NCBI GenBank assembly: GCA_035529595.1
Contig: DATKWK010000035.1
Span: forward strand, 1 to 47,066
Source of the DNA: Candidatus Bathyarchaeia archaeon
GTDB lineage: Bacteria; Patescibacteriota; Microgenomatia; PFEM01; JAFGMK01
Direction of reading: 5' to 3'
DNA: 47,066 bases
Shown: positions 20,874 to 47,066 of the stretch, in pieces
Layout: every line of letters starts with the position of its first letter
How positions within the stretch are numbered: the stretch's first letter is position 1
Notes under the pieces: model-generated
What the model was told of the DNA's origin: nothing
The model's input: the letters and a program-made list of their open reading frames with translations, nothing else
Database searches by the model: none
Program-made: the position numbers and the translations under genes

Positions 20874-20877
20874 GTTA

Positions 20878-23799: not shown

Positions 23800-23824
23800 G
23801 GAAATTAGTATTATAAATCACCGG

Positions 23825-29793: not shown

Positions 29794-29804
29794 AACTCCT
29801 CTCC

Positions 29805-31442: not shown

Positions 31443-31461
31443 TTTATTCTACCGGATTAAA

Positions 31462-32721
31462 TTACCGTGGGGTTTTTAATTCAGTTTCTATTTCTAACAA
31501 GCGATTATACTTCGCCACTCTCTCACCCCGAGCGGGAGCGCCGAATTTAACCAAGTTGGCACCAACGCCAACGGCAAAATCAGCAATAAAGTCATCCGTT
31601 GTTTCCCCTGAACGATGAGAAACAATAACTTTCCAACCGGCAGTCTGGGCGACTTTGACGACATCTATAGTCTCGGTGATAGTACCGACCTGATTAGGCT
31701 TAACTAATATTGCTGAACAAGCTTTTTCTTTAACGGCTTTTTGGGTTCTTCCCTTGTTGGTTACCAATAAATCGTCTCCGACAATAAAAACATCTTTCAT
31801 TTCCGCCGTAATTCTAACCCAGTTACCCCAGTCGTCCTCGTTTAGAGGATCTTCAAGCAAGTACAGGGGATACTGTTGGTGCAAATCAACAAAATACTCG
31901 ATCAATTCTTCCGTTGTTAAAGGCATTGTCCGGTCACGAATCCGATATTTACCGTCTTTAAAGAAATGGGAACCGGCAACATCTAAACCAAGAAAAACGT
32001 CTTTACCGAAAATCCTCCCCGCTTCTTTAATTGAATCCACCAATATTTCCAAGGCGTCTAAATTAGTAAACAGATTCGGGGCAAAGCCTCCTTCATCGCC
32101 AACGCTGTGAATTGCACCATGGCGAATAAGTACCTCTTCAACTGAATGATAGATTTCTTCTCCGGTCTGGAGTGCATGGGCATAACTTGGAGAACCTAAA
32201 GGTACGATGTGAAACTCCTGAAAATCAAGATTGCCGGCACCGTGCTTGCCGCCGCTAATCAGATTAAAAAGCGGTATAGGTAAGGCGTATTTTTTCAGAC
32301 CGGAAAGTTCGGCAACATGTTGATAAATAGGAATTTTTTTGGCGGCTGCACCGGCTTCGCAAACACCCTGAGAAACCGATAAAATCGTGTTAGCGCCCAA
32401 AGATGATTTATTCTTAGTCCCATCCAATTCAATTATCAACTGGTCAATTTTTTTCTGTTCGCGCGGATCGAAACCGATTAATTTCGGAGCAATTTTCTCA
32501 TTAACATTAGCAACCGCCCCTAGAACTCCTAAGCCGTTGTAACGTTTAGGATCATTATCACGAAGTTCCAAGGCTTCATGTTTTCCGACTGATCCTCCGG
32601 ATGGTACAGAGGCAACAGCCGTTGAACCATCTGATAGCCAAACTTTTGTTTCAACTGTCGGACTTCCCCGTGAATCCAGAATTTCCCTTGCTTTTATGGC
32701 TTTAATTGTTGCCTGATTCAT
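31462..32721 (-). CDS. eno: Enolase
   Basis: The motifs are REILDSRGSPTVE, SGG..G, GGKHG, QEF, VGDEGGFAP, LEDP, GDDLLVTN, KPNQVG, SHRSGET and KFGAP. All canonical catalytic and metal residues are present. The start overlaps the ppsA stop (ATGA). Confidence 0.95.
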   Translation of the reverse strand: MNQATIKAIKAREILDSRGSPTVETKVWLSDGSTAVASVPSGGSVGKHEALELRDNDPKRYNGLGVLGAVANVNEKIAPKLIGFDPREQKKIDQLIIELDGTKNKSSLGANTILSVSQGVCEAGAAAKKIPIYQHVAELSGLKKYALPIPLFNLISGGKHGAGNLDFQEFHIVPLGSPSYAHALQTGEEIYHSVEEVLIRHGAIHSVGDEGGFAPNLFTNLDALEILVDSIKEAGRIFGKDVFLGLDVAGSHFFKDGKYRIRDRTMPLTTEELIEYFVDLHQQYPLYLLEDPLNEDDWGNWVRITAEMKDVFIVGDDLLVTNKGRTQKAVKEKACSAILVKPNQVGTITETIDVVKVAQTAGWKVIVSHRSGETTDDFIADFAVGVGANLVKFGAPARGERVAKYNRLLEIETELKTPR

Positions 32722-35027
32722 TTTTTACCCTCTTTTTTAACCAATCTGGTCTCTAAGGAATAAATAAGTTCTCTAGTAGAATCAATGGCGTCCGGAGAAA
32801 CGGAAACACTGGTAATTCCCAGTTCAACTAATTTTTCGGTTATCTCAGCATAAGAAGAAGGCGCCTGACCGCAGATAGAACAAGTGATCCCTCTTTCTTG
32901 GCAGACGTTAATTGTCTTTTCGATTGCCCAAAGAACAGCTTCTTGCCGCTCATCGAAAACATCTTTAAGTTGTGAATTGTCACGATCAACCCCTAAAATA
33001 AGCATGGTTAAATCATTACTGCCAATTGAAACACCGTCTATCCCGATGTTAACAAATTTTTCCAGCAGAATTACGTTTGAGGGAATCTCGACCATCAGCC
33101 ATAGTTTGAAGGTGGAACTACGAGTCAAACCATTACTTACTACAATTTTTTTGACTTCCAGAAGTTCCTCCGGAGTCCGAACAAAAGGAATCATCAGCCA
33201 CAAATTTCTAAAACCCAGCTTGTTTCTGACCTTTTTAATAGCGGCTAATTCCAATTCGAACACTGCCGGATCCGACAGGTAACGAAAAGCACCTCGAAAA
33301 CCAAGCAGTGGGTTTTCTTCTTCCGGCTCGTAATGAGAACCGCCTTTCAGATTTCGGTATTCATTGGTCTTAAAATCTGTCGCCCGATAAACAACCGGCC
33401 GAGGATTAAAAGCCCGGCAAAACGTCGCTAACCCGGCTGTTAACTGGTTAATAAAAACCTGCTGTTTTTTCTCACGAATCATCCTCTTAGGATGAATGCC
33501 AATTTGAGCAATCATAAATTCCGCTCTGAGAAGACCGACACCGTCGACATTCATTTTAGCCACTTCTTCTGCTTTTTCGGGTTCAGCCAGATTGACATAA
33601 ACTTTTGTCGCCGTTCTGATTATCGAAGTCTCCGATTCGACTGACAGATCCTTTGGAGTGCCTTTAAGGATTTTCCCCGTCCAGGCGAGAGCTCCTTTGT
33701 AAATAATGCCCGTTTTCCCGTTAACAGTAATCAGCTGATCATTTCTTAACTTTTTAGTCCCCTCTTTTGTCCCCGTAATACAAGGAACGCCCAGCTCCCG
33801 GCTAACAATAGCGGCATGGGAAGTTTGACCCCCTAAATCGGTAACAATAGCGGCTACCTTCTTCATCACCGGAACAAAATCAGGCGTCGTCATTGAAGTA
33901 ACCAATATGTCACCGCGTTTGACCTGTCCAATTGATTTAACGGATTTAATCAGCCGGACCGGTCCGGAGGCAATTCCCGGAGAAGCCGATTCGCCTCTTA
34001 GTAAAATGGGTAAACCGATTCTCTTTTCGTCTGCCTGTTTTTTTTCGGTTTTTCCCTTCAGTGTAGTAATGGGCCTTGTTTGCAAAATATATAATTTTCT
34101 CCCCTTATATGCCCATTCGATATCTTGCGGGAAAAAATAATGCTGATGAATTTTTTTACCTAGTTTTGCCAATTCGATTATTTGGCTATCGGTAATTTTC
34201 TGCTTTCCTTTTTTTGAACGGGGAACCTCGATTCGTTTATTTTTTGTACCTATCTTTTTCATTTGGACTACTTGGTCACCGATATGCTTAGTAACAACTT
34301 TAAGGCGTTGTCTATCAATAATATACCGGTCAGGAATTACTTCACCCCGGACGATTAATTCTCCTAAACCGTAGATTGCCTCAATTAGAATTTTATCCTT
34401 TTCGCCGGTAATCGGATCGACAGTAAACATTACCCCGGAAATATCCGATTGAATCATCTCTTGAACCGGAACCGCAATCCCTACCTTAAAATGATCAAAC
34501 TGATGCTCTTTCCGATAAAAAATTGCCCGCGGTTCAAACAGAGACGCCCAGCATGATCGAACACGATTAACTACGTTAGCCTCGCCTTTGATATTTAAAA
34601 AAGTAGCCTGCTGGCCCGCAAATGACGCCGTCGGTAAATCTTCCGCAGTTGCTGACGAGCGAACGGCCACTAAAACATTTCTTAATCCTCGTCCCATAGA
34701 CAGATAAGCCTTCATGATATCAAGCGCAATCTCTTTGGGAATTGTTCCCTTTTCAATCAATCTCTTTATTTGTTGCGAAGCCTCGTTATATGCCTCAGTC
34801 TCGTCTGTCTTTATCTGATTTAAAATTTTGATAATCGGATTTTTCAGTTCATTTTTTAGTATAAATTCAAAATAGGCTTTCACGGTAACGACGAAACCCG
34901 GTGGTACCGGTAAACCGATCTTAGTCATCTCTCCCAGATTTGCCCCCTTGCCTCCGACCAAAGGCAGATCATTTTTATCTATCTCATTAAACAGCAAAAT
35001 ATTTTTTTCTGCTTTATTATTTTTCAT
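32718..35027 (-). CDS. ppsA: Phosphoenolpyruvate synthase (pyruvate, water dikinase) family enzyme
   Basis: The N-terminal nucleotide-binding domain has VGGKGANLGE. The phospho-His swivel domain has GGQTSHAAIVSRELGVPCI. The C-terminal PEP-utilising barrel has GSNDLT and CGQAPS. The AAGGAG SD favours ATG 35027 over the TTG at 35033. Confidence 0.85.
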   Translation of the reverse strand: MKNNKAEKNILLFNEIDKNDLPLVGGKGANLGEMTKIGLPVPPGFVVTVKAYFEFILKNELKNPIIKILNQIKTDETEAYNEASQQIKRLIEKGTIPKEIALDIMKAYLSMGRGLRNVLVAVRSSATAEDLPTASFAGQQATFLNIKGEANVVNRVRSCWASLFEPRAIFYRKEHQFDHFKVGIAVPVQEMIQSDISGVMFTVDPITGEKDKILIEAIYGLGELIVRGEVIPDRYIIDRQRLKVVTKHIGDQVVQMKKIGTKNKRIEVPRSKKGKQKITDSQIIELAKLGKKIHQHYFFPQDIEWAYKGRKLYILQTRPITTLKGKTEKKQADEKRIGLPILLRGESASPGIASGPVRLIKSVKSIGQVKRGDILVTSMTTPDFVPVMKKVAAIVTDLGGQTSHAAIVSRELGVPCITGTKEGTKKLRNDQLITVNGKTGIIYKGALAWTGKILKGTPKDLSVESETSIIRTATKVYVNLAEPEKAEEVAKMNVDGVGLLRAEFMIAQIGIHPKRMIREKKQQVFINQLTAGLATFCRAFNPRPVVYRATDFKTNEYRNLKGGSHYEPEEENPLLGFRGAFRYLSDPAVFELELAAIKKVRNKLGFRNLWLMIPFVRTPEELLEVKKIVVSNGLTRSSTFKLWLMVEIPSNVILLEKFVNIGIDGVSIGSNDLTMLILGVDRDNSQLKDVFDERQEAVLWAIEKTINVCQERGITCSICGQAPSSYAEITEKLVELGITSVSVSPDAIDSTRELIYSLETRLVKKEGKK

Positions 35028-35047
35028 AATCAATCTCCTTCACAAGC

Positions 35048-36118
35048 TTATTCGGCTAATCTTTCCTTAAAGTAATCAACCCAGGGTATCAACACTGGAT
35101 TTACACCATTCAAAAAGGCTAAATAAAAACTCAAAAAACCACCGAAATAAACTGCTTCCAGCGCTTGTATCAATTTGGTTTTTCCTTGGACTGTAAAACT
35201 CTCATAGCCAAGCTTATTTTTCTTGACCACGTCCTTGGTGATTTTAATTCTCTTTTGAATCTTATCCTCGTAGAGATCCGAGTCGATAAAAAGAAACTTC
35301 AAGATTTTTCTATTTAATGCCGGATTACTTAATCCTTCAAGAAGATGATGATTCATTTCCGGTAGACTAAACCAGATCGACATCATTTTTGAATTTTCGT
35401 TTATCATATTGGCAATAGCGTGATTGGCTCCCGCCAAATGCTGTCCCGAAATAAGAACCGGGATCTTATCCTGTAGCGAAAGAGAAAGCCTTTTAGCGGC
35501 ATTCCCCTCAATGGGCGTTTCGGCAGCAAATTGAGTTTTTAGATTACGCAAATAGGTTATGGCTTCGATGAGCCAAGTTTCCTCCAAATCAATAAAGCCG
35601 CACTTCTTTAAAAATGTCAGTTGAGCAGCCATCGAATAGCCTAAGCCTAAACGCGGTTGGCCGGCGGGGTTAAATTTCGGCTCAATAAAGTAGGCCATAA
35701 GCTTGTTTTTTCTAACCATCTCTCTCAGCTTGCCGCCGGTGGTTATCACAAAAATCTGGCATTTCCTGTTGATTGCTTCTAGCGCACAAGAGAGCGTTTC
35801 TTCGGTAGTTCCGGAATAACTTGAAATAATCACTAGTGAATCTTGACCGGCGTAAGCAGGTAAATGATAATCATTAAAGACCTCTAAAGGCAGCCTAAGA
35901 TTTTCCAGGCATAAAGAGTCAATTATTCCCGCTCCTAGAGCGGAACCACCCATACCGGCAACGACAATATTTTTGGCTTGGTGAAATCGGAGCGGAATGC
36001 TTAATTGATTAACGGCTGACCACGCTTGTTCAATCTGATCGGGAAGTAATCCGATCGACTCAAGAACGGATGCTTTATCAAATTCCTTAATTTGGGCAAG
36101 ATCATCAAGCGAATTCAT
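35048..36118 (-). CDS. Bifunctional phosphoglucose/phosphomannose isomerase (archaeal-type SIS-domain PGI/PMI)
   Basis: The SIS motifs are VVAGMGGSALGAG, VIISSYSGTTEETL and ITTGGKL. The length of 356 aa and the C-terminal PGI/PMI-like domain also fit. Confidence 0.7.
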   Translation of the reverse strand: MNSLDDLAQIKEFDKASVLESIGLLPDQIEQAWSAVNQLSIPLRFHQAKNIVVAGMGGSALGAGIIDSLCLENLRLPLEVFNDYHLPAYAGQDSLVIISSYSGTTEETLSCALEAINRKCQIFVITTGGKLREMVRKNKLMAYFIEPKFNPAGQPRLGLGYSMAAQLTFLKKCGFIDLEETWLIEAITYLRNLKTQFAAETPIEGNAAKRLSLSLQDKIPVLISGQHLAGANHAIANMINENSKMMSIWFSLPEMNHHLLEGLSNPALNRKILKFLFIDSDLYEDKIQKRIKITKDVVKKNKLGYESFTVQGKTKLIQALEAVYFGGFLSFYLAFLNGVNPVLIPWVDYFKERLAE

Positions 36119-36127
36119 AATTAAACC

Positions 36128-36156
36128 ATTGTAAGCAAAATATCCAAAGTTAGCAA
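36128..36156 (-). promoter_or_regulatory. Candidate promoter TTGCTA-17-TACAAT ending 9 nt before the PGI/PMI ATG (36118)
   Basis: The reverse complement reads TTGCTAactttggatattttgctTACAATggtttaattATG. There is no SD. Confidence 0.5.
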
Positions 36157-36163
36157 GTAGAAA

Positions 36164-36961
36164 TTAGATTAATAAATGTATTAGCTGATTGTGAATTTTT
36201 CCGTTTGAAGCGACAAAAGATTTTGATTTTACCCTCCACGGGTTGCCTTTCCAATCAGAGACATAACCGCCGGCTTCTTTGACTATGACGGCACTGGCAA
36301 CCGCATCCCATGGATCGACCATACCAAGATAACCATCGATCCGGCCGCTGGCGAGCAAAACGCAGCTTAGCGGAGTCGAACCAAATTCACGTAGTTTATA
36401 AGCACTCGTTATTAACCTGCCGGCTATTTTTGAGGTTAGAGCTCGATTTTCTTTGGTTTTTCCCAAGTCAAAAGCAAGCATCGCCCGGCTTAAGGAATTA
36501 ACTTTAGAAATTTTAATTTGTCTTTGGTTAACAAAAGCGCCTTGATTCAGGCTAGCGGTATACAACTCACGATCAATCGGTAAATAAATTACTCCCAAAA
36601 CCGGATTATTTTTATACAATAATCCGATTGAAACGACAAAAAGAGGTATATGATTGATAAAATTAGCCGTTCCACATAAAGGATCAAAAACCCAGGTAAA
36701 ATCAGACTTACCAAATTCGTGGTAGCCGGTTTCTTCCCCTAACAGATTATGTTTGGGATAAAACCGACCGATTATTTTTTTAATATTATCCTCCGAGGAC
36801 AAGTCAGCCGCCGAAACAAAATCCTGAATTTCATGATTCTTTTGCCTGACAGAATTTTCTTTATGGTATTGGTCGAGGATAATTTTACCGCTTGATTCAG
36901 CTGCTTTTCCAGCAATTTGCAAAGCCTGTTGGATAAATGATTTGCTTAATAAAAAACTCAT
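36164..36961 (-). CDS. Inositol-monophosphatase / FBPase-family protein with an atypical DPLCGT motif
   Basis: The IMPase-family motifs are LLGEETG, WVFDPLCGTANF (canonical W.iDP.DGT.NF) and WDAVASAVIVKEAGG. The Cys codon TGT lies at 36674-36676 on the minus strand. Confidence 0.75.
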   Translation of the reverse strand: MSFLLSKSFIQQALQIAGKAAESSGKIILDQYHKENSVRQKNHEIQDFVSAADLSSEDNIKKIIGRFYPKHNLLGEETGYHEFGKSDFTWVFDPLCGTANFINHIPLFVVSIGLLYKNNPVLGVIYLPIDRELYTASLNQGAFVNQRQIKISKVNSLSRAMLAFDLGKTKENRALTSKIAGRLITSAYKLREFGSTPLSCVLLASGRIDGYLGMVDPWDAVASAVIVKEAGGYVSDWKGNPWRVKSKSFVASNGKIHNQLIHLLI

Positions 36962-36977
36962 TCCGAAACGGCCGAAT

Positions 36978-39107
36978 TTATAAATTCAGATACTCATATA
37001 TGGATTGTCCGTATTTAGCGGAAAAAGCCTTATCAACTTTCTTAATCGGATCTGATCCTAAAAAATCGAGCTTAGCATCAAGGCGTTTTTTTCTCATTTG
37101 TTTATTCTTTACTTTTCTTAAACGGATAATTTCCTTTTCGATCTCAAAATAGCGCATCTTTATTTTAGCCGGCAATTGCCAGAAAAGTAAAAATCCACGA
37201 TCCGGAAAATCAATCCCGATAATTTTATAGCAATATTTCATAAATGCTCTTTCAAACTCAGACATGATCTGGTTGACCTCTCCTTTCCGTTCCTTAATCT
37301 CTTGAATATTAAAGGGATGTGTTCCAATTTCAAAATACATTTTTATTTTCGGGTCAGTGCCTGAAGGCCTAACCGTAATTCTCATTTGAGAAATTTTCCC
37401 GGTCGGTTTCATGTAAAAGACTAAAACATTTCGTGAGGCAGTGTCCGTAGCTGAAAGATGCGGTTGAGGCGGTCCCTCCCATCGATCCCATATTTTGTTA
37501 ACCAGAAAATTACCGAAATTTTTAGGTTTTGTCTTTCTAAGGACTGACTGAATTTTGTTAATTTCCTCCATCCCTTCTGCTCCGAGAAGACGTATCTCGG
37601 TTAAATAGTTTTGGAAATAACCGTATCGGGCATAAATCTCATCTAAATAGTGAAGTAATGTCTGCCCGTTTTCTTTAAGCTCACCGGCAAGTTCGCTTAA
37701 CCAAACAGCCGGAATCGTGGCGTCTTTATCACGCAGATAATTTCCTGAAATATAGCCGTGACTTTCTTCAGCTCCAAAAAGAAAATTACCAATCAGCCCT
37801 TCTCTTTCAAGTTCATCCATTATTTGGCTGATATATTTATAACCAACCAATAAATCACCAATGATACGAATATTACATTTCTTGGCTATGACTGAAATTA
37901 AAGAGCTGGTTACATCCGTCTTAACAATCACCTTAGCCGGACTCAATTTACCTCTGGTTTTATATTTAGAAATGACATATTCGGTCAAAATAACCGCAAT
38001 TTCCTGGCCATTTAAGTATTGCCACTTATTATTGCCTGAATTGACCATGATACCAATCCGATCCGCATCGGGATCGGATGAGAGTAAAATATCGGCCTTA
38101 ATTTTTTTAGCGAACTCAAGTGATGTCTCGAATGATTCAACTACCTCCGGGTTAGGGATATGAAAAGTAACGTTTTCAAATCTGGGACTGGGAAAAGAGG
38201 TTTTTGGATCAAGGAATACTTTGAATCGTAACCGCTTCAGTACCTTATAAACCGAAGTTGTACCAACACCATGAAGCGGAGTGTAAGCAATAATCGCCTG
38301 ACGATTGCTAGAGAGCGATATTTTAACCGATTTATTAATATACGCTTTATCTATCTCCCGACCGACAATTTGAATCAGTCTTTGTCTAACCGCTTTCTTA
38401 AAATTAAGGCTCTCAATCTCCATAACACCTTGTGTCACCTCATTTACCAATTCTTGATCAGCGGGAGGAATCAACTGGCCGCCGAATTGATCATAGACTT
38501 TTTTGCCGTTATCACTCGGGGGATTATGACTGGCACTGAACATATCGCCACCGATAGCTCCAAGATGTCGAATAGCAAACGAAAGTTCAGGGGTGCTTCT
38601 AACATCATCAAAAAAATAGACCTTTAATCCATTAGCGGCATAGACTTCGGCCGCGGCTTTTGCCAGATCCTTACACGAGAGTCCGTAAATTGGGTTAGTT
38701 AATTTCGGGTCATAAATATCTTCCTCAAGATAAACTCTCACATCATAGGTCAAAACGACTCCTCTTTTTTTGGCGATTTGACCGAATTTCTTAACCAAAA
38801 ATTGACTGTGCCCCTGGGCTGACGACATAATCGTCCAACGATTAATTCGATTGGGGCCGATACCCACCAATCCCCGACGTCCGCCGGTACCGAAAGGAAT
38901 AATTTGGTAAAACGAATCGAGAAGAAAATCCCATTTTTTTTGCTTGATCAAGAATTTAATCTGGGGGACATAGCTTTTAAATTCCCTCTCGCTTAACCAC
39001 CGCTTCAGATAAAATAAGGCTTTTTTTTGATATTTCCCGGACACGCTCAGGGTACTAAACCCGGCTTTGGCTTTCTTAATTAAGCTTTCAAGATTACCTG
39101 CGACCAT
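36978..39107 (-). CDS. Phosphoglucomutase/phosphomannomutase (PgcA-like) with extended termini, 709 aa
   Basis: The motifs are FGTGGRRG, the phospho-Ser loop SASHNPPSDNGKKV, the metal loop SSDPDADRIG, the sugar loop GAEESHGY and the phosphate loop RPSGTDPKIKMY. About 135 aa follow the last motif. Confidence 0.8.
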   Translation of the reverse strand: MVAGNLESLIKKAKAGFSTLSVSGKYQKKALFYLKRWLSEREFKSYVPQIKFLIKQKKWDFLLDSFYQIIPFGTGGRRGLVGIGPNRINRWTIMSSAQGHSQFLVKKFGQIAKKRGVVLTYDVRVYLEEDIYDPKLTNPIYGLSCKDLAKAAAEVYAANGLKVYFFDDVRSTPELSFAIRHLGAIGGDMFSASHNPPSDNGKKVYDQFGGQLIPPADQELVNEVTQGVMEIESLNFKKAVRQRLIQIVGREIDKAYINKSVKISLSSNRQAIIAYTPLHGVGTTSVYKVLKRLRFKVFLDPKTSFPSPRFENVTFHIPNPEVVESFETSLEFAKKIKADILLSSDPDADRIGIMVNSGNNKWQYLNGQEIAVILTEYVISKYKTRGKLSPAKVIVKTDVTSSLISVIAKKCNIRIIGDLLVGYKYISQIMDELEREGLIGNFLFGAEESHGYISGNYLRDKDATIPAVWLSELAGELKENGQTLLHYLDEIYARYGYFQNYLTEIRLLGAEGMEEINKIQSVLRKTKPKNFGNFLVNKIWDRWEGPPQPHLSATDTASRNVLVFYMKPTGKISQMRITVRPSGTDPKIKMYFEIGTHPFNIQEIKERKGEVNQIMSEFERAFMKYCYKIIGIDFPDRGFLLFWQLPAKIKMRYFEIEKEIIRLRKVKNKQMRKKRLDAKLDFLGSDPIKKVDKAFSAKYGQSIYEYLNL

Positions 39108-39145
39108 TTTTCTAACTTAATAAATATCTAGGGTAACTGTTGATT

Positions 39146-39838
39146 TTATAAATCGGTAATCAGTAAATCAAGAGCTGACTTAAGCGGAAGGCTTGCTCGA
39201 CCGGTTTTCTGCTCACAGTCTATTTTAAGCAACTGCCGATGAAAATTTAACAATTTTTGCCAGGAAAATAAACTGCCTTGGCGTAATAGATTTCCCAGTC
39301 GCCAAGGCGCCAGGCCGGATAGGCCAGCTTTACCCAAGTCTTTACCGACTAATAAATCACGTGTTCGCCTGGCTAACATGTAAAAAACAAGTTCTGTAGC
39401 CTCGGTTTTCAAGGTCTGATGCATCAAATCTAAAATTAATCTGGCATTGCCAGGTTTAAATGAATCTAAAAATTTAAAAAGCAGGGGTGAGAGCTTAAAG
39501 TTCGTAATTTTTACTTTCACCGGGAAACTTTTCAAAAGTCGTCCGTCAATCTGTTTTTTATCCCAAAGAATTAGGGATGTTTCGGCCGGTAGAGCCTTTA
39601 AGTAATGTAAAAGTGTCTGTTTATCTCTGCTTGCGGGTAGAGAAAAAAAATTCTCGATAATCACCAGACGATCCTGGCCAAAAAGGGACCGGGATTCAAA
39701 TATTTGCTTCATTAACGCCAAGTCAAGTTTTTTTTCCGGAAGTTCGATCACTTCCTTGCCAGAGCCTTTAGCAGCTTCTTTGATTTTTATTAAAGCCTGA
39801 CGGCTAGCAACAATGTTGGCACCGTGTAGGATTTGCAT
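39146..39838 (-). CDS. holA: Probable DNA polymerase III delta subunit (short HolA-like)
   Basis: The N-terminal pattern is HolA-like (ESRSLFGQDRLVIIENF, LHYLKALPAETSLILW), followed by a helical C-terminal half. At 230 aa it is shorter than canonical HolA, and similarity was judged by eye only. Confidence 0.45.
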   Translation of the reverse strand: MQILHGANIVASRQALIKIKEAAKGSGKEVIELPEKKLDLALMKQIFESRSLFGQDRLVIIENFFSLPASRDKQTLLHYLKALPAETSLILWDKKQIDGRLLKSFPVKVKITNFKLSPLLFKFLDSFKPGNARLILDLMHQTLKTEATELVFYMLARRTRDLLVGKDLGKAGLSGLAPWRLGNLLRQGSLFSWQKLLNFHRQLLKIDCEQKTGRASLPLKSALDLLITDL

Positions 39839-39855
39839 TCTGTTCTTGACAATAA

Positions 39856-40224
39856 TTACTTAATCTTTTGAAATAATTTCTCTACCTCTCGGGCATCGAT
39901 TCTCCGACTACGACCCCGATGGGAAAGGAGAGCCCCGGAAAAATTTCTGGGTATATGTAATAATTCATGAATCAAGATCCGCGTCTGTTCTTCTCTCGTG
40001 AGATGGTCAAACCGCTCTTTCATAACTTCAATGCAGTAATAAGGAGACAAACCCAAAGCCTGTTGCCAGATGCGCGGAAAACTCCAGATTCTGGCTCGCG
40101 CACGGGCTTTTGAACCGGAGCTGCGGAAAGTAATTATTTTTCGTGGATCAATATAGGAAAGGGATAATTGTTTAACTAAAGAAGTGACTTTCTTTTGAAT
40201 GTCGGGTGCTTTTTGAAAAACCAT
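39856..40224 (-). CDS. Small putative zinc metallopeptidase (HExxH)
   Basis: The 122-aa protein has a single ILIHELLHIP HExxH motif near the C-terminus. The family assignment is uncertain. Confidence 0.45.
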   Translation of the reverse strand: MVFQKAPDIQKKVTSLVKQLSLSYIDPRKIITFRSSGSKARARARIWSFPRIWQQALGLSPYYCIEVMKERFDHLTREEQTRILIHELLHIPRNFSGALLSHRGRSRRIDAREVEKLFQKIK

Positions 40225-40259
40225 TTAAGCTTATTGATTAAAGGTAAATTATTTGTCTC

Positions 40260-40290
40260 AAAAAAAAACATATCCTTGATTCAACAAGAT
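40260..40290 (-). terminator. Rho-independent-terminator-like hairpin plus T9 after the 83-aa barrel protein gene
   Basis: The minus strand reads ATCTTGttgaatCAAGGATatgTTTTTTTTT. It is a 6-bp AU-rich stem with one bulge followed by a 9-T tract (plus-strand A-run 40260-40268). Confidence 0.4.
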
Positions 40291-40329
40291 TTGTTTTTCT
40301 TGCCTAATCCAAGCAAGTTTGCCGTTTTC

Positions 40330-40581
40330 TTACCCGGATATTTTTATAATCGCATCGCCTTCCTTAACCGGCTGGTCGACCTTTAAACCGACTACAGCTC
40401 CCTTTTCTGCTTGCTGGATTTGCTCATGTTCAACCTGCAATGAAGCTATTACCTGCTCAAACTCATTACTGCCGGAAATTTTGATCTTATCTCCTATTGC
40501 AATGGGTGCTAAAACTTCAATGACAGCAACGCCAATCTTATTATAATAATGATTGATTTTACCTACTTTGAAATCGGCCAT
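40330..40581 (-). CDS. Stand-alone EF-Tu-domain-2-like beta-barrel protein (translation elongation factor-like small protein)
   Basis: The 83-aa sequence is IGVAVIEVLAPIAIGDKIKISGSNEFEQVIASLQVEHEQIQQAEKGAVVGLKV...GDAI. It resembles the translation-factor domain II barrel. It has the strongest SD in the window (AAAGGAGGTG; GGAGG at 40588-40592, 6 nt before the ATG). Confidence 0.55.
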   Translation of the reverse strand: MADFKVGKINHYYNKIGVAVIEVLAPIAIGDKIKISGSNEFEQVIASLQVEHEQIQQAEKGAVVGLKVDQPVKEGDAIIKISG

Positions 40582-40633
40582 TGTTCACCTCCTTTCGCCA
40601 TTTTCATCTTCATCGTAAGACAGGCTTATTAAG

Positions 40634-43030
40634 TCAACCAGAAGTTTTTTGCTTGCCTAACAATACTTTTACCAGATGCTTGCCTTCCCGAAAATCAGGC
40701 AGAATCTTACCCTTAATTTCTTTTCCGTCTACCTGGATCTTATTGACTCCTTTACTTATTTTTTCGGGATTTCGGACTTCGATTTCATAGCGAGCTTTCC
40801 GGAATTCTCTTACTACCTGGTATTTCTTCCATCCGGGAGGAATACAAGGATCAATTAACAGGCCATCTAAGGTCGGCCTGATTCCTAAAATCCAATCTAA
40901 GCAAGCACGAAAAAACCAGGCGGCACTGCCCGTAGTCCAGGTAAACGATCCTTCACCAAAGAGCTTGCTTTCAGGGCCGTAAACAAATTCCGCATAAACA
41001 TAAGGCTCGGCCTTGTACAGTTCAGGATCCTGACCTCGAGTCATAAAAGAAGTTTTTCGCCAATAGTTATAAGCTTTTTCACCCCGTCCCAGAATACATT
41101 CGGAAATTACCGCCCAGCTCACTGGATGATTAAAAATAGTCCCATTTTCTTTAGTCCCGGGAGAAAATTGGGATATGATCCCGAGGGCGCTGTTCAAGTA
41201 AGTGTACGAAGGCAGAAATAAGCATGGCCCATAAGGGGTATTTAATAATTTATCAACCGAGTCCATCGCCTGTTTGCCTCTTTTTTCATCAGCTACCCCG
41301 CTCATTACCGGCCAAATTTGGCCATCCAAAAAAATCTTACCTTCTTTTTTGCGGTGGCTCCCAATCGCTTCACCATCATCACGGGTAGCCCGAATATACC
41401 AGGCTCCGTCCCAACAATATTTATTCAAAGCTTGTTTAATCTCTTCATAAATTTTCTTATATTTTTTAAAAAGATCACGCCTATTTTTTGCTTCCAAAAT
41501 AGGCAGCAGACGGATAATATTCCAGCACATTTGATTGGAAACCATCATTGATTCGCCCCGGCCTAAGTAACCCCCAGCCAAAGCATCATTCCAATCAGCC
41601 GTCCGGTGAAGCGCCAAGCCACGGCTACTCCTGTTGGAAACGGTATAATCAAGAGCGCTAAGTAAATGCTCAAAAACGGTATCCTTACCTCCGTTATAAT
41701 ATTTTACTTTCTGATTAAGAATTGTCAGATCACCGGACTCATTAAGATAGTCTATAATGGACATCACCAACCACTGACAATCATCGGCATGACCGGTAAT
41801 AGCGCCTTTATTTGTGAATACGTCAAAATTATGAAAAACTTTGCCATCAGTAAACTGATGTTCCAGGAGATAAATGAGCTTACTTTTGGCAAATTCAAGG
41901 TCATGTGGCAATATTCCTAATAAATGCTGGCACTCGTCACGGAATCCATAAGTAGCTCCTCCGGAAATGTAATAGGAGTCCATTTCAGACCAATGAGGTG
42001 TAATCCAAGCTTGGTATTTATTCCAATAATTAACGGAAATATCAAATTCCGGATCAGGGGTTTTTACCCTAATTTTCTCAAGATACTTTTGCCAATAAAG
42101 CTGAAGTGATTCCCATTCCGATTCAATTGCTTCGTGCCGGCTGAATTGTCGACAGCGTTTTTTAATCTCTTTCTTACTAGGCCCAACTCCTAAACAAATG
42201 TCAAAAATTATCTCCTCACCGGGTTCAACCTGAAACTGTTTCATCAAGACACCAACAGCATCTTCTCCTTGTCCACAACTTTGGCTACATCTTCCTTCTT
42301 GAATTATTTTCGGTGCAGAAAGATATTTGAAAGGCCCAAGAAATTCCCGCTTGCTACAATCGAAACCGTCAGCGCCAAGATTAGAATAGAGAAAGGCAAT
42401 CTTATCCCAGGGTAAATCTTGTCTATCAGGACGAATCCAACGACGTTTTGTGGCAAAAATTATTTCTTCCTCACACTCGGTAACATTAAAAAGCGTGTCA
42501 AAACTTCGGTCAACCAAATCTGATTGATAGTTACCAAGGCACCACTCGACATAGGTAAAAATACTGAGATTCCTTTTCTTCCAGCCAAGATTCTTTAATC
42601 TGACTGTCCAGAATTCATGCAAGCCTTTAACCGGAACAAAAAAACGAAGACTGCTCTGAATTTCTTTATTAACCTGGCAGATCTGGGTATATCCGAGACC
42701 ATGTCTTGCTTCCCAAAAATCAAACGGACTCTGAACCGGCTGCCAGCCTAAGCTCCAAAACTCCCCCGTCTCATTATCCCTGAGATAAAGATACCTACCC
42801 GGCCGGTCTTCTATTAATTCATCACCCGGCTTTTCTCTTAAAATCCGATTATAACCGGAGTCATCGACAAAAGAATAACCGCCACCGGAGTGTGAGATTA
42901 AAGCGCAATACCGTTCATTGGAAAGGTGATTAATCCAGGGCTTAGGAACATCCGGCCTGATAATTACATACTCTAAACCATCAGGCGTGAAATAGCCATA
43001 TTTTGATTTACAAATTCCACTTGAACTCAT
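40634..43030 (-). CDS. GH94 glycoside phosphorylase (cellobiose/chitobiose/laminaribiose-phosphorylase family), substrate unknown
   Basis: The N-terminus is YGYFTPDGLEYVIIRPDVPKPWINHLSN. The motifs are HGLGY, YGFRDECQH, the catalytic-Asp motif RTADWNDAL, ENGTIFNHPVSW, EPYVYAE and TWTTGSAAW. The length of 798 aa fits the family. Confidence 0.88.
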   Translation of the reverse strand: MSSSGICKSKYGYFTPDGLEYVIIRPDVPKPWINHLSNERYCALISHSGGGYSFVDDSGYNRILREKPGDELIEDRPGRYLYLRDNETGEFWSLGWQPVQSPFDFWEARHGLGYTQICQVNKEIQSSLRFFVPVKGLHEFWTVRLKNLGWKKRNLSIFTYVEWCLGNYQSDLVDRSFDTLFNVTECEEEIIFATKRRWIRPDRQDLPWDKIAFLYSNLGADGFDCSKREFLGPFKYLSAPKIIQEGRCSQSCGQGEDAVGVLMKQFQVEPGEEIIFDICLGVGPSKKEIKKRCRQFSRHEAIESEWESLQLYWQKYLEKIRVKTPDPEFDISVNYWNKYQAWITPHWSEMDSYYISGGATYGFRDECQHLLGILPHDLEFAKSKLIYLLEHQFTDGKVFHNFDVFTNKGAITGHADDCQWLVMSIIDYLNESGDLTILNQKVKYYNGGKDTVFEHLLSALDYTVSNRSSRGLALHRTADWNDALAGGYLGRGESMMVSNQMCWNIIRLLPILEAKNRRDLFKKYKKIYEEIKQALNKYCWDGAWYIRATRDDGEAIGSHRKKEGKIFLDGQIWPVMSGVADEKRGKQAMDSVDKLLNTPYGPCLFLPSYTYLNSALGIISQFSPGTKENGTIFNHPVSWAVISECILGRGEKAYNYWRKTSFMTRGQDPELYKAEPYVYAEFVYGPESKLFGEGSFTWTTGSAAWFFRACLDWILGIRPTLDGLLIDPCIPPGWKKYQVVREFRKARYEIEVRNPEKISKGVNKIQVDGKEIKGKILPDFREGKHLVKVLLGKQKTSG

Positions 43031-43073
43031 TAGGCAGTTTTCTTGATTGCTAATAAAGATCTATTAAAAAAGA

Positions 43074-45347
43074 TTAAACATTCGAATCATTGCTTATTGT
43101 AACATAAGAATAAGCTTGACTACCAAGAACCAGCTCTATTCCTAATCGGTTAAGGTCATCCTTAACAATTGTTTCTTTACCATTTAAAAAAACATTGCAT
43201 TCCCCGCCTGGCGGCTGTTTGAACTTTAATCGAAATCGGCAGTTAACTTCGGTAGGATTATAAACAATGAAGTCTTGTTTGCCATCAAGCCTGGTGATTA
43301 TCGACGGCTCCAGGTAATCTAGACGCATCGTCATGATTTCCCTTACCGAAGCCTCGGCAAAAGCTTCAAAAAGTAAATAAAGCCAAATAGCTTCACCTGC
43401 CCCGTAGATTGCGTGACCGACTCCTCCACCGCGGTGCCTTGAGCCGCTAGCACGTAAGGCAGGTAGGGATTCTAGGGGGATGAAACAAGGGTCGGTTACT
43501 TTTTGATACGTATCAAAGAAATAAAAGTTGTTCCGGCGAGCTAAATTTAAAAACATCAAAAGTGGTCGGGTAAACTTTTCATCACCCAGAAGGATTATCC
43601 AAGGTAAGATTGATTCCACATTCTCCTTAAAAGCCGGGTTTTGTTTGACAACCGGATAAATTTTGGAAGGAAACGAACGAACCATACCGGCACAATCACA
43701 ATTAAGCTCTTTTTTGAGACTTTTATCCGTATACCAGTAAAACATCCGTAGTTGCTGCGCAATAAACTCCCAAGCCCACTCTCTAAATTCAGAAGACCCA
43801 GTCTTCTTGAATAGGCGGTAACTGGCAGCCGCGGCATAAGAAAGCTGCTGCGGTTCGTGGAAAAGCCAATCAAGCGGGAGTTGACGGATGGTTCTAAGTG
43901 AAACTTCGGCTTCGGTAAGAAATTTAGTCTCCGAAGTTAATTCAGATAATAAACACATTCCGTAACTGTAAAGCCCCGCGGCAGCGAAGTTCTTTCTTTC
44001 GCCATGAGCTTTTTCGTTCTGCCAATCATAACGCAACGGAAATAAATAGCCGCAATCCCGGGCAATGCCGATTATTTTTTGGCAAAATTTAATATAAATT
44101 GACTTTAATGTTTTGTCGCCGGATAGAAACGCAATCCAGCCGAACTTAATTAAACCATTTTCCAAAAAATACCAAGTTTCCTCGTCCTGACACATAAGCT
44201 GATCGTCTAGCGGGTACCAGTTAGCCAAAAAAAGCTTCTTTTGGTTAAAAAAACCGGGAAGGATTAAAAAAAGTTTCTCATATAAATGTTTGATTGCTGT
44301 ATCCGGCTGCAGGCGCAAATAATGGAATAATGGCCATAGAACGTCAACTTGAGTCATTAGCTCAACCCGAGAAGGCGGATTTGAAGAAGCAAAATCACCG
44401 ATCTGGGCATACGCCCGCAAACCGGTTTCCTTGTCGGTTAATTTGATTTGGGACATTTCTTCTTTTGCTAAATCCTGAAAGCATTTTTTGGCAAAATCCG
44501 TCCAAGAATATTTTCCTTTCCAAATAGACTTTTTTGATTTCAAAAGCGGAGAAAGTTGGCCTATAAACCGGGAAATCCCCAGCCATTGATCCGGCTGTTT
44601 TTCGATCGATTGGCTCCTGATATAATAAGAGAATCTTTGCTGGCCTTTGGGGAGGAGCTGCCCCAGATAATCAATATTTTCCGGCCAAAAACCGACATAT
44701 CTTTCCCGCAGCGGTTGGTCTTTTCCTCTTTTTAAAATTGATTTCAGACCGCACCGGCCGCCTAAAAAGCCAAAGATGTTACTATTTGAAGTCCAATTAA
44801 GACTCTCCCAATCTAAAAAGAACATCACTTCGCTTCGCGTGCAAGGATCATAATAGTAGACAGCGGGCAAGTCACTGCTTTGAACACCAAGATTGTCGGT
44901 AGCCGGATTGGCAATTAAAACCTGATTCCAAATAAAGCTACCTTCTTCTTGAACCGAGACGGTTGGCAGCTTAAAAACAATCTGTGGTTCGCTCTCACGT
45001 TGATATCTAAGCCGCATTGAGTCTTTGAGGTCAATAAAGACATCAAATTTAAACCAATCGCTATCCAGGAGCTTAATGTTGGCATTCCAAGAGTAAGCGA
45101 AAGGTTTGTTTTGAAGATTTACGGCCGTTGAAGTCCCGCTCAAAGAAAGACAATCAGACGACTGTTGATTAATCTTTTGCGCACGAAGGTTAAAACTTGG
45201 CCCCCAAATAAGGGGGTTATCATTTGAGGTTGTCGGTGTCCATTCCACGCCTCTTTTACTAAAAAGTTGCCAACCAAAACCGTTTTTTCCCGAATTAAAA
45301 CAAATCTCCTGGTTGCCTCCTTCAATTTTGAAGCAGCTATTTTTCAT
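43074..45347 (-). CDS. 757-aa cytoplasmic protein of unknown function (possible beta-sandwich / alpha-alpha-toroid / beta-sandwich glycan-active fold)
   Basis: This is a long uninterrupted ORF. I preferred ATG 45347 (MKNSCFKIEGG) to the TTG at 45356. It overlaps the upstream gene by 11 nt. I saw no signal peptide, no TM segment and no motif I can assign. Confidence 0.7.
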   Translation of the reverse strand: MKNSCFKIEGGNQEICFNSGKNGFGWQLFSKRGVEWTPTTSNDNPLIWGPSFNLRAQKINQQSSDCLSLSGTSTAVNLQNKPFAYSWNANIKLLDSDWFKFDVFIDLKDSMRLRYQRESEPQIVFKLPTVSVQEEGSFIWNQVLIANPATDNLGVQSSDLPAVYYYDPCTRSEVMFFLDWESLNWTSNSNIFGFLGGRCGLKSILKRGKDQPLRERYVGFWPENIDYLGQLLPKGQQRFSYYIRSQSIEKQPDQWLGISRFIGQLSPLLKSKKSIWKGKYSWTDFAKKCFQDLAKEEMSQIKLTDKETGLRAYAQIGDFASSNPPSRVELMTQVDVLWPLFHYLRLQPDTAIKHLYEKLFLILPGFFNQKKLFLANWYPLDDQLMCQDEETWYFLENGLIKFGWIAFLSGDKTLKSIYIKFCQKIIGIARDCGYLFPLRYDWQNEKAHGERKNFAAAGLYSYGMCLLSELTSETKFLTEAEVSLRTIRQLPLDWLFHEPQQLSYAAAASYRLFKKTGSSEFREWAWEFIAQQLRMFYWYTDKSLKKELNCDCAGMVRSFPSKIYPVVKQNPAFKENVESILPWIILLGDEKFTRPLLMFLNLARRNNFYFFDTYQKVTDPCFIPLESLPALRASGSRHRGGGVGHAIYGAGEAIWLYLLFEAFAEASVREIMTMRLDYLEPSIITRLDGKQDFIVYNPTEVNCRFRLKFKQPPGGECNVFLNGKETIVKDDLNRLGIELVLGSQAYSYVTISNDSNV

Positions 45348-46389
45348 TATCGGCAAGAGCCAGATAGGCCAACAAATAACAAATGGAGCTTTCGGCTCCT
45401 TTATTCAAGTTCACTTTCCAAGGTTCTAAACCATCATAACATCCACCATCCTTTTTATCAATCAAGCTTAATCCAGCCAGATTTTTCCCGTGGAACCAAG
45501 TAAACCACTCCCAGGCTAAACCTGAATAATACTTGTTCCCGGTAATCTCACCGGCAGCAAGCGAAGCTAGTACCAGATAACCTGCTTCTATCGGTTGTTG
45601 ATCATAAATAGCCCGGTTACCTCTTTTCGCATACCAGCCGCGTTGGCCGATCGGAGCAGGAATATTATTGATAGTCGAAACCTTAATTAAGAACCTAAAA
45701 CTTTCCGAAGCTACCTTTAAAAGACTTCTATCACCCAATATTTTAGCGGCGATAAAAAGAGAATAAGGTAAAATAGCATTGGCATAAGTTAATATGTTTT
45801 CAAACCAGCGCCAATCAGCCGTCCGGTTTTCCTGATATTGCTTTATCAGCCGTCCGGCTAACTCAGTTGCCCGTTTTCTGACTTGGAGATTTTCTCCCGT
45901 CCGGAGATAATAACAAAGACCAGCCAACGAATAAGCCTTAGTCCGAAGACCAGTAAATTCAAGTATTCTAGGCAGACAGCGATTAAAAATTTTATCTATC
46001 TTTCCGTCAAGGTTTTTCGTGTAACCGAGCGACCGGAGAAATCCAAGAGCCCAAACTGTCTCCCCAAAACTATCCTCAGCCAACTCGTGACTGAAAAACG
46101 ACTGTCCGTATGACCGCCAAAGATAATTATGAAACCTGCCATCGTCTATTTGAGTCTCTTCAATGAAGTTTAAAATCTTGCCGATTAAATCATAAAAAGT
46201 CTTCTGCCGGTAAAGTTTATAGTGCCAAGCTGCAACAATTAAGCCTCGAGCGTTATCATCAAGACTATAACCCATCACTTGTTCAGGTGACGAAAAACGG
46301 CTATGCTGAAGAATTCCATTTGCATCAGCCAATTTCAAGAAAAAAGTAGTTTTGGGAGCCTGCTTCAGGTTGGGGAGAATAAGTTTCAT
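45337..46389 (-). CDS. 350-aa helix-repeat protein of unknown function (possibly six-hairpin / (alpha/alpha)6-like)
   Basis: The ORF start overlaps the stop of the upstream glycosyltransferase (TAATG at 46389). Repeated aromatic-rich helical segments are present (GYSLDDNARGLIVAAWHY, FGETVWALGFL, AYSLAGLCYYL, ANAILPYSLFIAA, AGYLVLASLAA, ESSICYLLAYLAL). The fold assignment is inference. Confidence 0.65.
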   Translation of the reverse strand: MKLILPNLKQAPKTTFFLKLADANGILQHSRFSSPEQVMGYSLDDNARGLIVAAWHYKLYRQKTFYDLIGKILNFIEETQIDDGRFHNYLWRSYGQSFFSHELAEDSFGETVWALGFLRSLGYTKNLDGKIDKIFNRCLPRILEFTGLRTKAYSLAGLCYYLRTGENLQVRKRATELAGRLIKQYQENRTADWRWFENILTYANAILPYSLFIAAKILGDRSLLKVASESFRFLIKVSTINNIPAPIGQRGWYAKRGNRAIYDQQPIEAGYLVLASLAAGEITGNKYYSGLAWEWFTWFHGKNLAGLSLIDKKDGGCYDGLEPWKVNLNKGAESSICYLLAYLALADNEK

Positions 46390-47066
46390 TATTTTCGCTT
46401 CAGTTTTTTCCTTTGTGCTCGCTTCTTAAGTATCAGCCGGAAGAGATCAAGATGCCGAAGTGCAACGTTATGCCAGATCATTTTCCGACCAAAATTATAG
46501 GCTTCAAGTTTCATCTTTTGCATTACCAACGGGTGTTCCAGTTGAAAATTGATTGCCTGAGCAATTTGGTCACAATCACGAAAATCAACCAGCAATCCCC
46601 GTTTATCAGCCAAAGTTTCTTTAGCATATATGTAAGGAGTCGAAATACACACCTTACCGGCGGCCAAAGCATAAGCCAGGGTACCGCTGGCCGTTTGGTC
46701 AGGGCCAAGATATGGCGTAATATAGAAATCAGTCGCCATCAAATATTGAATTAATTCTTCCAGGGTGATATACCGGTTATCAAACTTAACGTAATCTTCA
46801 AGCTTCAGATCCTGGATTAGTTTCTTCAGCCGGTTCCGATAAACTTCGTCTTGCCATTTGATCACTTCGGGATGAGTCATACCGGCAATGAGAAACAATA
46901 TTTGCGGATGTCGACGGACTATTGTGGGGAGTGCCTGAATGACATATTCAAGGCCTTTATTTTCACTCAATAAATTAATGGCGGATATTAAGATTCTTCC
47001 TTCAAACCCAAGGTCTTTCTTATAGGGCTCAGAAGAGGTAAAAGCAACGTCAGGTACTCCATGAGG
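46389..47066 (-). CDS. GT-B glycosyltransferase (GT4/GT5-like), C-terminal domain; the 5' end lies outside the window
   Basis: The frame stays open to the window edge (PHGVPDVAFTSS...ILISAINLLSENKGLEYVIQALP). The pattern is GT-B C-domain: ILFLIAGMTHPEV, DYVKFDNRYITLEELIQYLMATDFYITPYLGPDQTASGTLAYALAAGKVCIST, RGLLVDF. The usual E-x7-E is replaced by Q-x7-Y. Confidence 0.7.
   Translation of the reverse strand, partial: PHGVPDVAFTSSEPYKKDLGFEGRILISAINLLSENKGLEYVIQALPTIVRRHPQILFLIAGMTHPEVIKWQDEVYRNRLKKLIQDLKLEDYVKFDNRYITLEELIQYLMATDFYITPYLGPDQTASGTLAYALAAGKVCISTPYIYAKETLADKRGLLVDFRDCDQIAQAINFQLEHPLVMQKMKLEAYNFGRKMIWHNVALRHLDLFRLILKKRAQRKKLKRK

Follow-up and report, generated by a model that had tools for sequence, protein, structure and literature searches.

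The 757-aa protein, its predicted fold and its family

The stretch of DNA analyzed here, contig DATKWK010000035.1 of assembly GCA_035529595.1 (47,066 nucleotides [nt], called the window in its entirety), carries at its far end a minus-strand cassette of four genes. They encode a glycosyltransferase of family 4 (GT4), a protein of 350 amino acids (aa), a protein of 757 aa and a phosphorylase of glycoside hydrolase family 94 (GH94) (Table 1). The subject of this work is the 757-aa protein, the product of a real gene with a well-predicted toroid fold and a clear genomic signature, which makes it a candidate for a new glycoside hydrolase family.

Table 1. Positions in the window of the 757-aa protein gene, its predicted domains, conserved residues and neighboring genes
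Feature	Position	Strand	Basis
Coding sequence, 757 aa, member of the unnamed six-hairpin family	43074..45347	minus	Open reading frame, homologues, AlphaFold2 model
N-terminal β-sandwich, residues 1-250	44598..45347	minus	DSSP strands 5-247
Helical toroid core, residues 254-660	43368..44588	minus	DSSP, twelve main helices; Foldseek
C-terminal β-sandwich, residues 664-752	43092..43358	minus	DSSP strands
Glu498 codon, motif HEPQQ, N terminus of a barrel helix	43854..43856	minus	E 85, Q 8, D 6 of 101 members
Glu575 codon, motif PAFKENVE, candidate catalytic carboxylate	43623..43625	minus	E in 100/101 members
Glu626 codon, motif IPLE, candidate catalytic carboxylate	43470..43472	minus	E in 100/101 members
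Tyr648 codon, motif YGAGE	43404..43406	minus	Y in 100/101 members
Patescibacteria-private insertions, residues 565-570 and 636-642	43584-43601 and 43422-43442
GT4 glycosyltransferase, C-terminal part	46389..47066	minus	Pfam Glycos_transf_1, E 8e-16; frame open to window edge
350-aa (α/α)6 protein, upstream	45337..46389	minus	AlphaFold2 pLDDT 89.9, Foldseek
GH94 phosphorylase, 798 aa, downstream	40634..43030	minus	Pfam catalytic domain E 5e-115, supersandwich E 4e-68
PGM	36978-39107	minus	Pfam
Inositol-monophosphatase family	36164-36961	minus	Pfam
PGI	35048-36118	minus	Pfam

The open reading frame (ORF) starts with ATG, and an in-frame TTG at 45356, nine bases upstream, would give a protein of 760 aa. 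The existence of homologues with 44 to 56% identity, E values down to 1e-280 and retained gene order shows that the ORF is not a chance one. On the Kyte-Doolittle scale, no 19-residue stretch has a mean above 1.25, a value reached at residue 646 within a barrel helix, and the N terminus is polar. This low hydropathy maximum together with the polar N terminus indicates that the window copy has neither a transmembrane segment nor a signal peptide and is cytoplasmic, as had been presumed in an earlier reading of the DNA made from its letters alone (the sequence-only reading). That reading had also singled out the gene as the largest in the window without an assignable motif, which agrees with the assignment of all the remaining large ORFs (UvrA, UvrB, UvrC, a transglutaminase-like protein, GH94, PPDK/PEP synthase and PGM).

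The structure of the protein was predicted with AlphaFold2 using 12 homologues, which gave a model with a mean predicted local distance difference test (pLDDT) of 86.5 and a predicted template modeling score of 0.91. The three-part layout that the sequence-only reading had proposed by eye is recovered in the model, with β-strands between residues 5 and 247, twelve main helices between 254 and 660 and a second β-region from 664 to 752; the six peptides that it had quoted are all found in the protein, at residues 83, 334, 392, 455, 502 and 649. The twelve helices form six pairs; in four of these (330-346/350-361, 391-409/412-431, 457-471/475-488 and 499-516/519-533) the two members are joined by turns of 2 to 3 residues, and long loops connect the successive pairs. 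As modeled, this pairing and these loops are the pattern of an (α/α)6 toroid.

Comparison of the model with the Protein Data Bank (PDB) using Foldseek gave 75 matches at E ≤ 1e-3, of which the best 50 were examined by name. All of these 50 but one are carbohydrate enzymes with an (α/α)6 toroid, the exception being a phage tail protein at rank 2. The first match is the GH94 cellodextrin phosphorylase 8hnu, aligned over the full length (E 4.5e-8, 974 alignment columns, template modeling [TM] score 0.28). Further matches include many GH127 and GH146 arabinofuranosidases (E 1e-7 to 1e-5), the polysaccharide lyase BACCELL_00875 (E 7.5e-7), the GH63 enzyme YgjK (E 7e-6), the GH65 kojibiose phosphorylase 3wiq (E 1e-4, TM score 0.20) and GH76. 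The alignments with YgjK and 3wiq are also full length, so that the domain order of the GH15, GH65, GH94 and GH63 type that had been read from the sequence is matched by GH94, GH63 and GH65 structures. A model lacking a toroid or cleft, or a confident match to a family that does not act on glycans, had been named beforehand as the outcomes that would speak against a glycan-active protein, and the AlphaFold2 and Foldseek comparison gave neither.

The match at rank 2 (7xdi_F) is the tail protein of the archaeal virus SSV19 (E 6e-8, target-normalized TM score 0.46). It may be a toroid domain, perhaps serving the virus tail as a glycan-binding or depolymerase module.

Searches of the family databases with the 757-aa protein returned no Pfam family at E ≤ 1 and no NCBIfam match, and searches of PDB sequences with the single sequence and with two family profiles (A1 and the broader A2) gave nothing below E 0.02. 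When 32 relatives were compared with Pfam and NCBIfam, only sporadic sub-threshold matches to toroid families were obtained (C5-epimerase, GH127, GH36C and LanM). A literature search found no characterized member of the family, and nothing relevant on YPO2471 (a solved structure discussed below), on the context of GH94 in Patescibacteria or on β-1,2-mannanase. The suggestion that the protein belongs to an undescribed glycan-active family is supported by the lack of matches in Pfam, NCBIfam and PDB sequences. Its description as an orphan was mistaken, given that a word-indexed search finds 13 proteins and an exhaustive profile search 536 clusters at E ≤ 1e-3, with 128 of them at E ≤ 1e-30.

Six of the 13 proteins, besides the window protein, are from Patescibacteria/Pacebacteria and account for the 44 to 56% identities given above; the other homologues, at 29 to 33% identity, include two from Aggregatilinea (Chloroflexota) and two from loci traced to Acidobacteriota. 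A scan of the GTDB species representatives gave 145 relatives, and the best 80 of these 145 are overwhelmingly from Acidobacteriota, with a single Paceibacterota genome. Profile A1 was used for the locus scan, for which the broad alignment A2 is too diverse, and neither members nor names were gained when the word-indexed search was repeated with A2. The members seen are called “hypothetical protein” in their sources or are named after an accessory domain (LamG, discoidin). Distant members are fused to F5/8-type-C domains, to dockerin or to a type IX secretion system sorting tail, which fits extracellular glycan-active enzymes. The window protein, which is itself the seed of the profiles, matches A1 and A2 over its full length and has the triad of Glu575, Glu626 and Tyr648. 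At the level of sequence, it is a member of a sizeable unnamed family, whose newness is judged against Pfam, NCBIfam and the PDB and not against CAZy models.

To assess residue conservation, 101 diverse members were aligned to the family profile. The residues of the triad are the best conserved, and Glu498 is mostly retained (Table 1). Conservation is also observed for Glu578 (84/101), Trp392 (88/101), Trp538 (91/101), Tyr434 (88/101) and Arg604 (74/101), and Tyr164 and Trp185 are nearly invariant among the members that have the N-terminal β-sandwich. No His or Cys is conserved family-wide: His497 is present in 35 of the 101, and Cys is missing from the columns of the 101 members at 80% or above and from the invariant or near-invariant columns of A1 and A2. 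In six-hairpin enzymes, the active site is built at the N termini of alternate barrel helices and on the long loops between pairs, and glycosidases are usually marked by a pair of invariant carboxylates. In the secondary structure of the model, the conserved Glu329, Trp392, Glu498, Trp538, Glu575 and others sit at helix starts or in long loops.

The Patescibacteria members have two private insertions, “PVVKQN” before Glu575 (residues 565 to 570) and “SRH” within “GSRHRGGGVG” before Tyr648 (residues 636 to 642), and nowhere else in the model does pLDDT fall below 50. Judging from the alignment, the loops beside the presumed catalytic residues are altered in this clade. Since the insertions carry basic residues and glycines, the specificity for substrate or co-substrate may have changed there.

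Gene neighborhoods

The order GT4, 350-aa protein, 757-aa protein and GH94 is kept in five Patescibacteria loci (the window, L006/L008, L090, L091 and L092) with different flanks; another locus, L001, terminates just past the gene of the 757-aa family. The GT4 frame that runs into the window edge aligns with the full-length GT4 of L006. The genes are tightly packed: the GT4 stop and the start of the 350-aa gene share 1 nt, the stop of the 350-aa gene overlaps the ATG of the 757-aa gene by 11 nt, and GH94 starts 43 nt past the stop of the 757-aa gene. Among solved structures, the window GH94 is most closely related to those of cellobiose and chitobiose phosphorylases (E about 1e-151) and is far from the 1,2-β-oligoglucan phosphorylase 5h3z (E 1.5e-7).

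The 350-aa protein has its best Foldseek match in YPO2471 (7tem, TM score 0.78), followed by barrels of the N-acylglucosamine 2-epimerase (AGE) type at about 0.75. Its family is widespread and unnamed, occurring in Patescibacteria, Bathyarchaeia, Bacillota and Chloroflexota beside or fused to GT4. Its members are often mislabeled “glycosyltransferase,” and the only solved relative is the uncharacterized YPO2471 of Yersinia pestis. Two loci of this family, L088 (6001-7044) and L089 (6001-7107), both have a GH130, which carries the phosphorylase signature in L088 and a partly different one in L089. The core of the 757-aa protein was also considered as a paralogue of the 350-aa toroid, for which hhalign gave an unconvincing probability of 18.7% over 118 columns.

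Two proteins of the published Thermoanaerobacter β-1,2-mannoside phosphorylase cluster were compared with these families through 98%-identical homologues. Teth514_1791 was rejected as a member of the 757-aa family, given that it scores only 101 bits against its homologue and must therefore be far too short. Teth514_1785, which scores 699 bits, adjoins a GT4 and has some homologues named “glycosyltransferase,” is probably a member of the 350-aa family.

The context outside Patescibacteria was surveyed by clustering all neighboring ORFs of 87 loci, and GH130 was counted over the 75 loci with more than 1.2 kb downstream. A GH130 gene is present in 59 of the 75 loci, and 56 of these genes lie on the same strand within 400 bp downstream. 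A TonB-dependent receptor is found in 62 loci, and a twin-arginine-like leader in 58 of 75 family members. The partner GH130 is closest to β-1,2-mannoside phosphorylases and retains the Lys199 determinant of β-1,2 specificity. It has a Glu at the position of Glu268 of BT3780 (“VVEPGPP”), is devoid of the His-Arg and Arg/Lys of the phosphorylases and usually has an N-terminal anchor. Cuskin et al. 2015 (PMC4599007) give criteria that separate GH130 hydrolases from phosphorylases, the latter being without the base carboxylate of the hydrolases, and on this basis the partner GH130 of the acidobacterial type is classed by its residues as a hydrolase.

The loci in which the family member is cytoplasmic (L003 and L004 from Chloroflexota, and L084 from Symbiobacteriaceae) have GH130 enzymes with the phosphorylase signature, a situation similar to that in the window, where the partner is the GH94 phosphorylase. 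Other genes of such loci encode LacI, an ABC sugar transporter and GFO/IDH/MocA oxidoreductases. Across phyla, the recurrent partner of the family is GH130 or GH94, not a glycosyltransferase. The family thus travels with an exo-acting β-glycoside enzyme in both compartments, with GH94 replacing GH130 in Patescibacteria.

Some further features of these loci were observed. Two tandem phosphorylase-type GH130 copies and a PGM are present in L084, echoing the two-phosphorylase cluster of Thermoanaerobacter. The GFO/IDH/MocA oxidoreductases, which are NAD dependent, flank the family gene in L084 (8691-13617), L004 (8003-12352) and L065 (7535-12181), from Bacillota and other groups. A protein of about 864 aa that is unannotated and has a twin-arginine-like leader occurs in L083 (13350-15944) and in 38 of the acidobacterial loci (for example L029 3320-5929). 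It has no match in Pfam or among PDB sequences, and the system formed by the TonB-dependent receptor, the 757-aa family and GH130 may have in it a further undescribed enzyme that acts on glycans. A 441-aa protein of unknown function and TPR proteins are also recurrent in the acidobacterial loci.

The overlaps of the GT4, 350-aa and 757-aa genes, and their presence together in five Patescibacteria loci, are what would be expected if the 757-aa protein were a biosynthetic or remodeling enzyme (transglycosylase, branching or cyclizing) acting on the glycan made by GT4, with GH94 controlling chain length; action on the product of the adjacent glycosyltransferase had been proposed in the sequence-only reading. 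In addition, the window GH94 has a match (E 1.8e-104) in the corresponding domain of cyclic glucan synthase, an enzyme whose architecture is described in PMC10834661. We consider this role unlikely. Elsewhere, the family occurs without a glycosyltransferase, in uptake and degradation loci that combine a TonB-dependent receptor or an ABC transporter with GH130, and there is no cyclic glucan synthase among the 50 Foldseek matches examined. Moreover, GT4 enzymes are retaining and make α-linkages, whereas GH94 and GH130 act on β-linkages, and the GT4 product is therefore not an obvious substrate for GH94.

Proposed function and relation to known enzymes

We favor, with a probability of roughly 55%, a reading of the 757-aa protein as a glycoside hydrolase that is cytoplasmic, belongs to a six-hairpin family not yet described and supplies oligosaccharide to GH94 and from there to PGM, PGI and glycolysis. 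The enzyme would trim or depolymerize a β-linked oligosaccharide for the GH94 encoded immediately downstream, which would phosphorolyze the trimmed product to a sugar-1-phosphate, and this would enter glycolysis via PGM and PGI, whose genes run in the same direction. Glu575 and Glu626 would serve as acid and base, and Tyr648 and Glu498 would belong to the sugar-binding site. The analysis shows the gene, its predicted fold, the family, the conserved residues and the neighborhoods; from these we infer the hydrolytic chemistry, the residue roles and the order of the steps. A hydrolase upstream of an exo-acting partner is suggested by the invariant pair of glutamates and the tyrosine on this scaffold, the export of most members, the module fusions and the pairing with GH130 or GH94; export of most members also favors hydrolysis over phosphorolysis across the family.

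Several observations weigh against a hydrolase. The structural similarity is remote, with the best Foldseek E value being 4.5e-8 and whole-chain TM scores about 0.3, and therefore the fold alone assigns no family. The last two helices are linked by a loop of 38 residues, in or after which Glu626 and Tyr648 lie, and the side of the barrel on which this loop is found is uncertain from the secondary structure. Arg604 is invariant in the 32 full-length members and, like the clade loops with Lys, Arg and His next to Glu575 and Tyr648, would also suit phosphate binding. The tight coupling of the gene to those of GT4 and the 350-aa protein could mean the biosynthetic or remodeling role discussed above.

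A glycoside phosphorylase of a new family, at least in the cytoplasmic Patescibacteria clade, would account for Arg604 and for the basic residues and glycines of the “PVVKQN” and “SRHRGGG” loops, and would be at home in a cytoplasmic copy encoded among sugar-phosphate enzymes. The domain order is indeed shared with the GH65 and GH94 phosphorylases, and GH94 ranks first in Foldseek. However, both family-wide glutamates are kept in the Patescibacteria clade, whereas in GH15/GH65 the phosphorylases are without the base carboxylate of the hydrolases. The twin-arginine-like leader with which most family members are exported fits phosphorolysis poorly, and a dedicated phosphorylase is already encoded next door, which together make this a decidedly improbable assignment.

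The protein is not a divergent GH94 either. It has the N-terminal β-sandwich, (α/α)6 barrel and C-terminal β-sandwich of the GH94 phosphorylases in the same order, but the comparison of the A2 profile with an alignment of the neighboring GH94 (A4) using hhalign gives a probability of 0.1% (E 0.41), because of which the assignment was rejected. Neither PF17167 nor PF06165 matches the 757-aa protein or any of 32 family members, and the family conserves two glutamates and a tyrosine instead of the catalytic Asp of GH94 with its phosphate-binding residues. The motifs ADWND, GFRD and TGSAAW, which the sequence-only reading had noted as absent from the 757-aa protein, are found by exact-string search only in the GH94 neighbor, at residues 478, 362 and 700.

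With GH15, GH65 and GH63, the protein shares the β-sandwich N-domain and the (α/α)6 barrel and, on the side of the 757-aa family only as candidate residues, catalysis by carboxylates. It differs from them in having no Pfam or PDB-sequence match, with TM scores of 0.2 to 0.3. Furthermore, GH15, GH63 and GH65 act on α-glucosides, and the partners of the 757-aa family act on β-linkages. The protein is not categorically new, having the layout of GH94, GH65, GH63 and GH15, though it falls outside each of them. The GH127 and GH146 β-L-arabinofuranosidases also combine a toroid with a β-sandwich (TM scores of 0.25 to 0.34), and one family member has a sub-threshold Pfam match to GH127. GH127 enzymes use a Cys nucleophile in a Zn-Cys3-Glu site; there is no Cys among the conserved columns of the 757-aa family.

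Taken by itself, the toroid core superposes best on barrels of the AGE superfamily (N-acylglucosamine 2-epimerase, cellobiose 2-epimerase, mannose isomerase and YihS), with target-normalized TM scores of 0.55 to 0.61. This raises the question of an epimerase or isomerase that makes the substrate of the phosphorylase, and the pairing of an epimerase with GH130 is established in mannan catabolism (mannobiose 2-epimerase; PMC12871903). We regard such an activity as very unlikely. There is no conserved His pair, with His497 present in about a third of the members; two extra β-sandwich domains are present, most members are exported, and there is no Pfam AGE match. In contrast, AGE-type enzymes use a His pair and are single-domain cytoplasmic proteins of about 400 aa. 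These barrels are nearer to the upstream 350-aa protein, as the TM scores given above show.

The polysaccharide lyase among the Foldseek matches has a toroid plus sandwich, and toroid lyases typically have an invariant Tyr. However, neutral sugars are the substrates of the GH130 and GH94 partners, a uronate would be repelled by the two invariant glutamates, and no genes of uronate metabolism were found in the surveyed loci. A non-catalytic protein that binds carbohydrate or serves as a scaffold would not be expected to have charged residues that stay invariant in a set of 101 members. On these grounds, both a lyase and a non-catalytic role are highly improbable.

The proposed hydrolase has a functional analogue in the endo-β-1,2-glucanases of GH144 and GH162, (α/α)6 endo-enzymes that feed the exo-acting GH94 1,2-β-oligoglucan phosphorylase. 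The likeness is one of function only: no GH144 or GH162 structure is among the 50 Foldseek matches examined, and the window GH94 is of the cellobiose/chitobiose type and not of the 1,2-β-oligoglucan phosphorylase type.

By a loose analogy with mannogen cycling in Leishmania or with cyclic glucan synthase, the four genes could form a closed cycle in which a reserve or compatible oligosaccharide is made and recycled inside the cell, with the 757-aa protein as a transglycosylase or phosphorylase of a new family. This is a rather improbable scheme, which, if true, would recover sugar-1-phosphate without ATP and would mean a carbon reserve in an ultra-small bacterium.

If the prediction of a hydrolase holds, a new glycoside hydrolase family comprising at least 536 sequence clusters would have the 757-aa protein as its seed. 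This family is common in soil Acidobacteriota, where it lies between a TonB-dependent receptor and a GH130 of the β-1,2-mannosidase type, and this placement would suggest that a step has gone unrecognized in how a glycan with mannosides, possibly a fungal one, is turned over. Patescibacteria, with their very small sugar metabolism, would have recruited a second branch of the family into it. The analysis yields three targets for mutation (Glu575, Glu626 and Tyr648), the partner enzymes and homologues from several phyla.

Other genes of the window

The genes for PGM, the inositol-monophosphatase-family protein and PGI also trail the cassette in L006, L090 and L092. According to Pfam, PPDK/PEP synthase, enolase and iPGM are encoded further downstream on the same strand. 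The cassette is the start of a co-directional run of about 19 kb on the minus strand (28060-47066) that reaches an AMP-binding, acetyl-CoA-synthetase-like enzyme, and, with PGM, PGI, PPDK/PEP synthase, enolase and iPGM, it is a sugar-to-pyruvate gene run.

The window PGM has 709 aa, which is about 240 aa longer than its counterparts in L006, L090 and L092 (458 to 477 aa). The Pfam PGM domains span only residues 144 to 495, and the N- and C-terminal extensions are unexplained. Between GH94 and holA, there are two small minus-strand genes that hold the same position in L006, L090 and L092, one for a 122-aa “phage metallopeptidase” (PF18894; 39856-40224) and the other for an 83-aa protein that resembles domain 2 of EF-Tu or the C-terminal domain of U32 (40330-40581). 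Elsewhere in the window, uvrB, uvrA and uvrC are clustered on the minus strand (17731-25858), with a 614-aa transglutaminase-like protein encoded between uvrA and uvrC.

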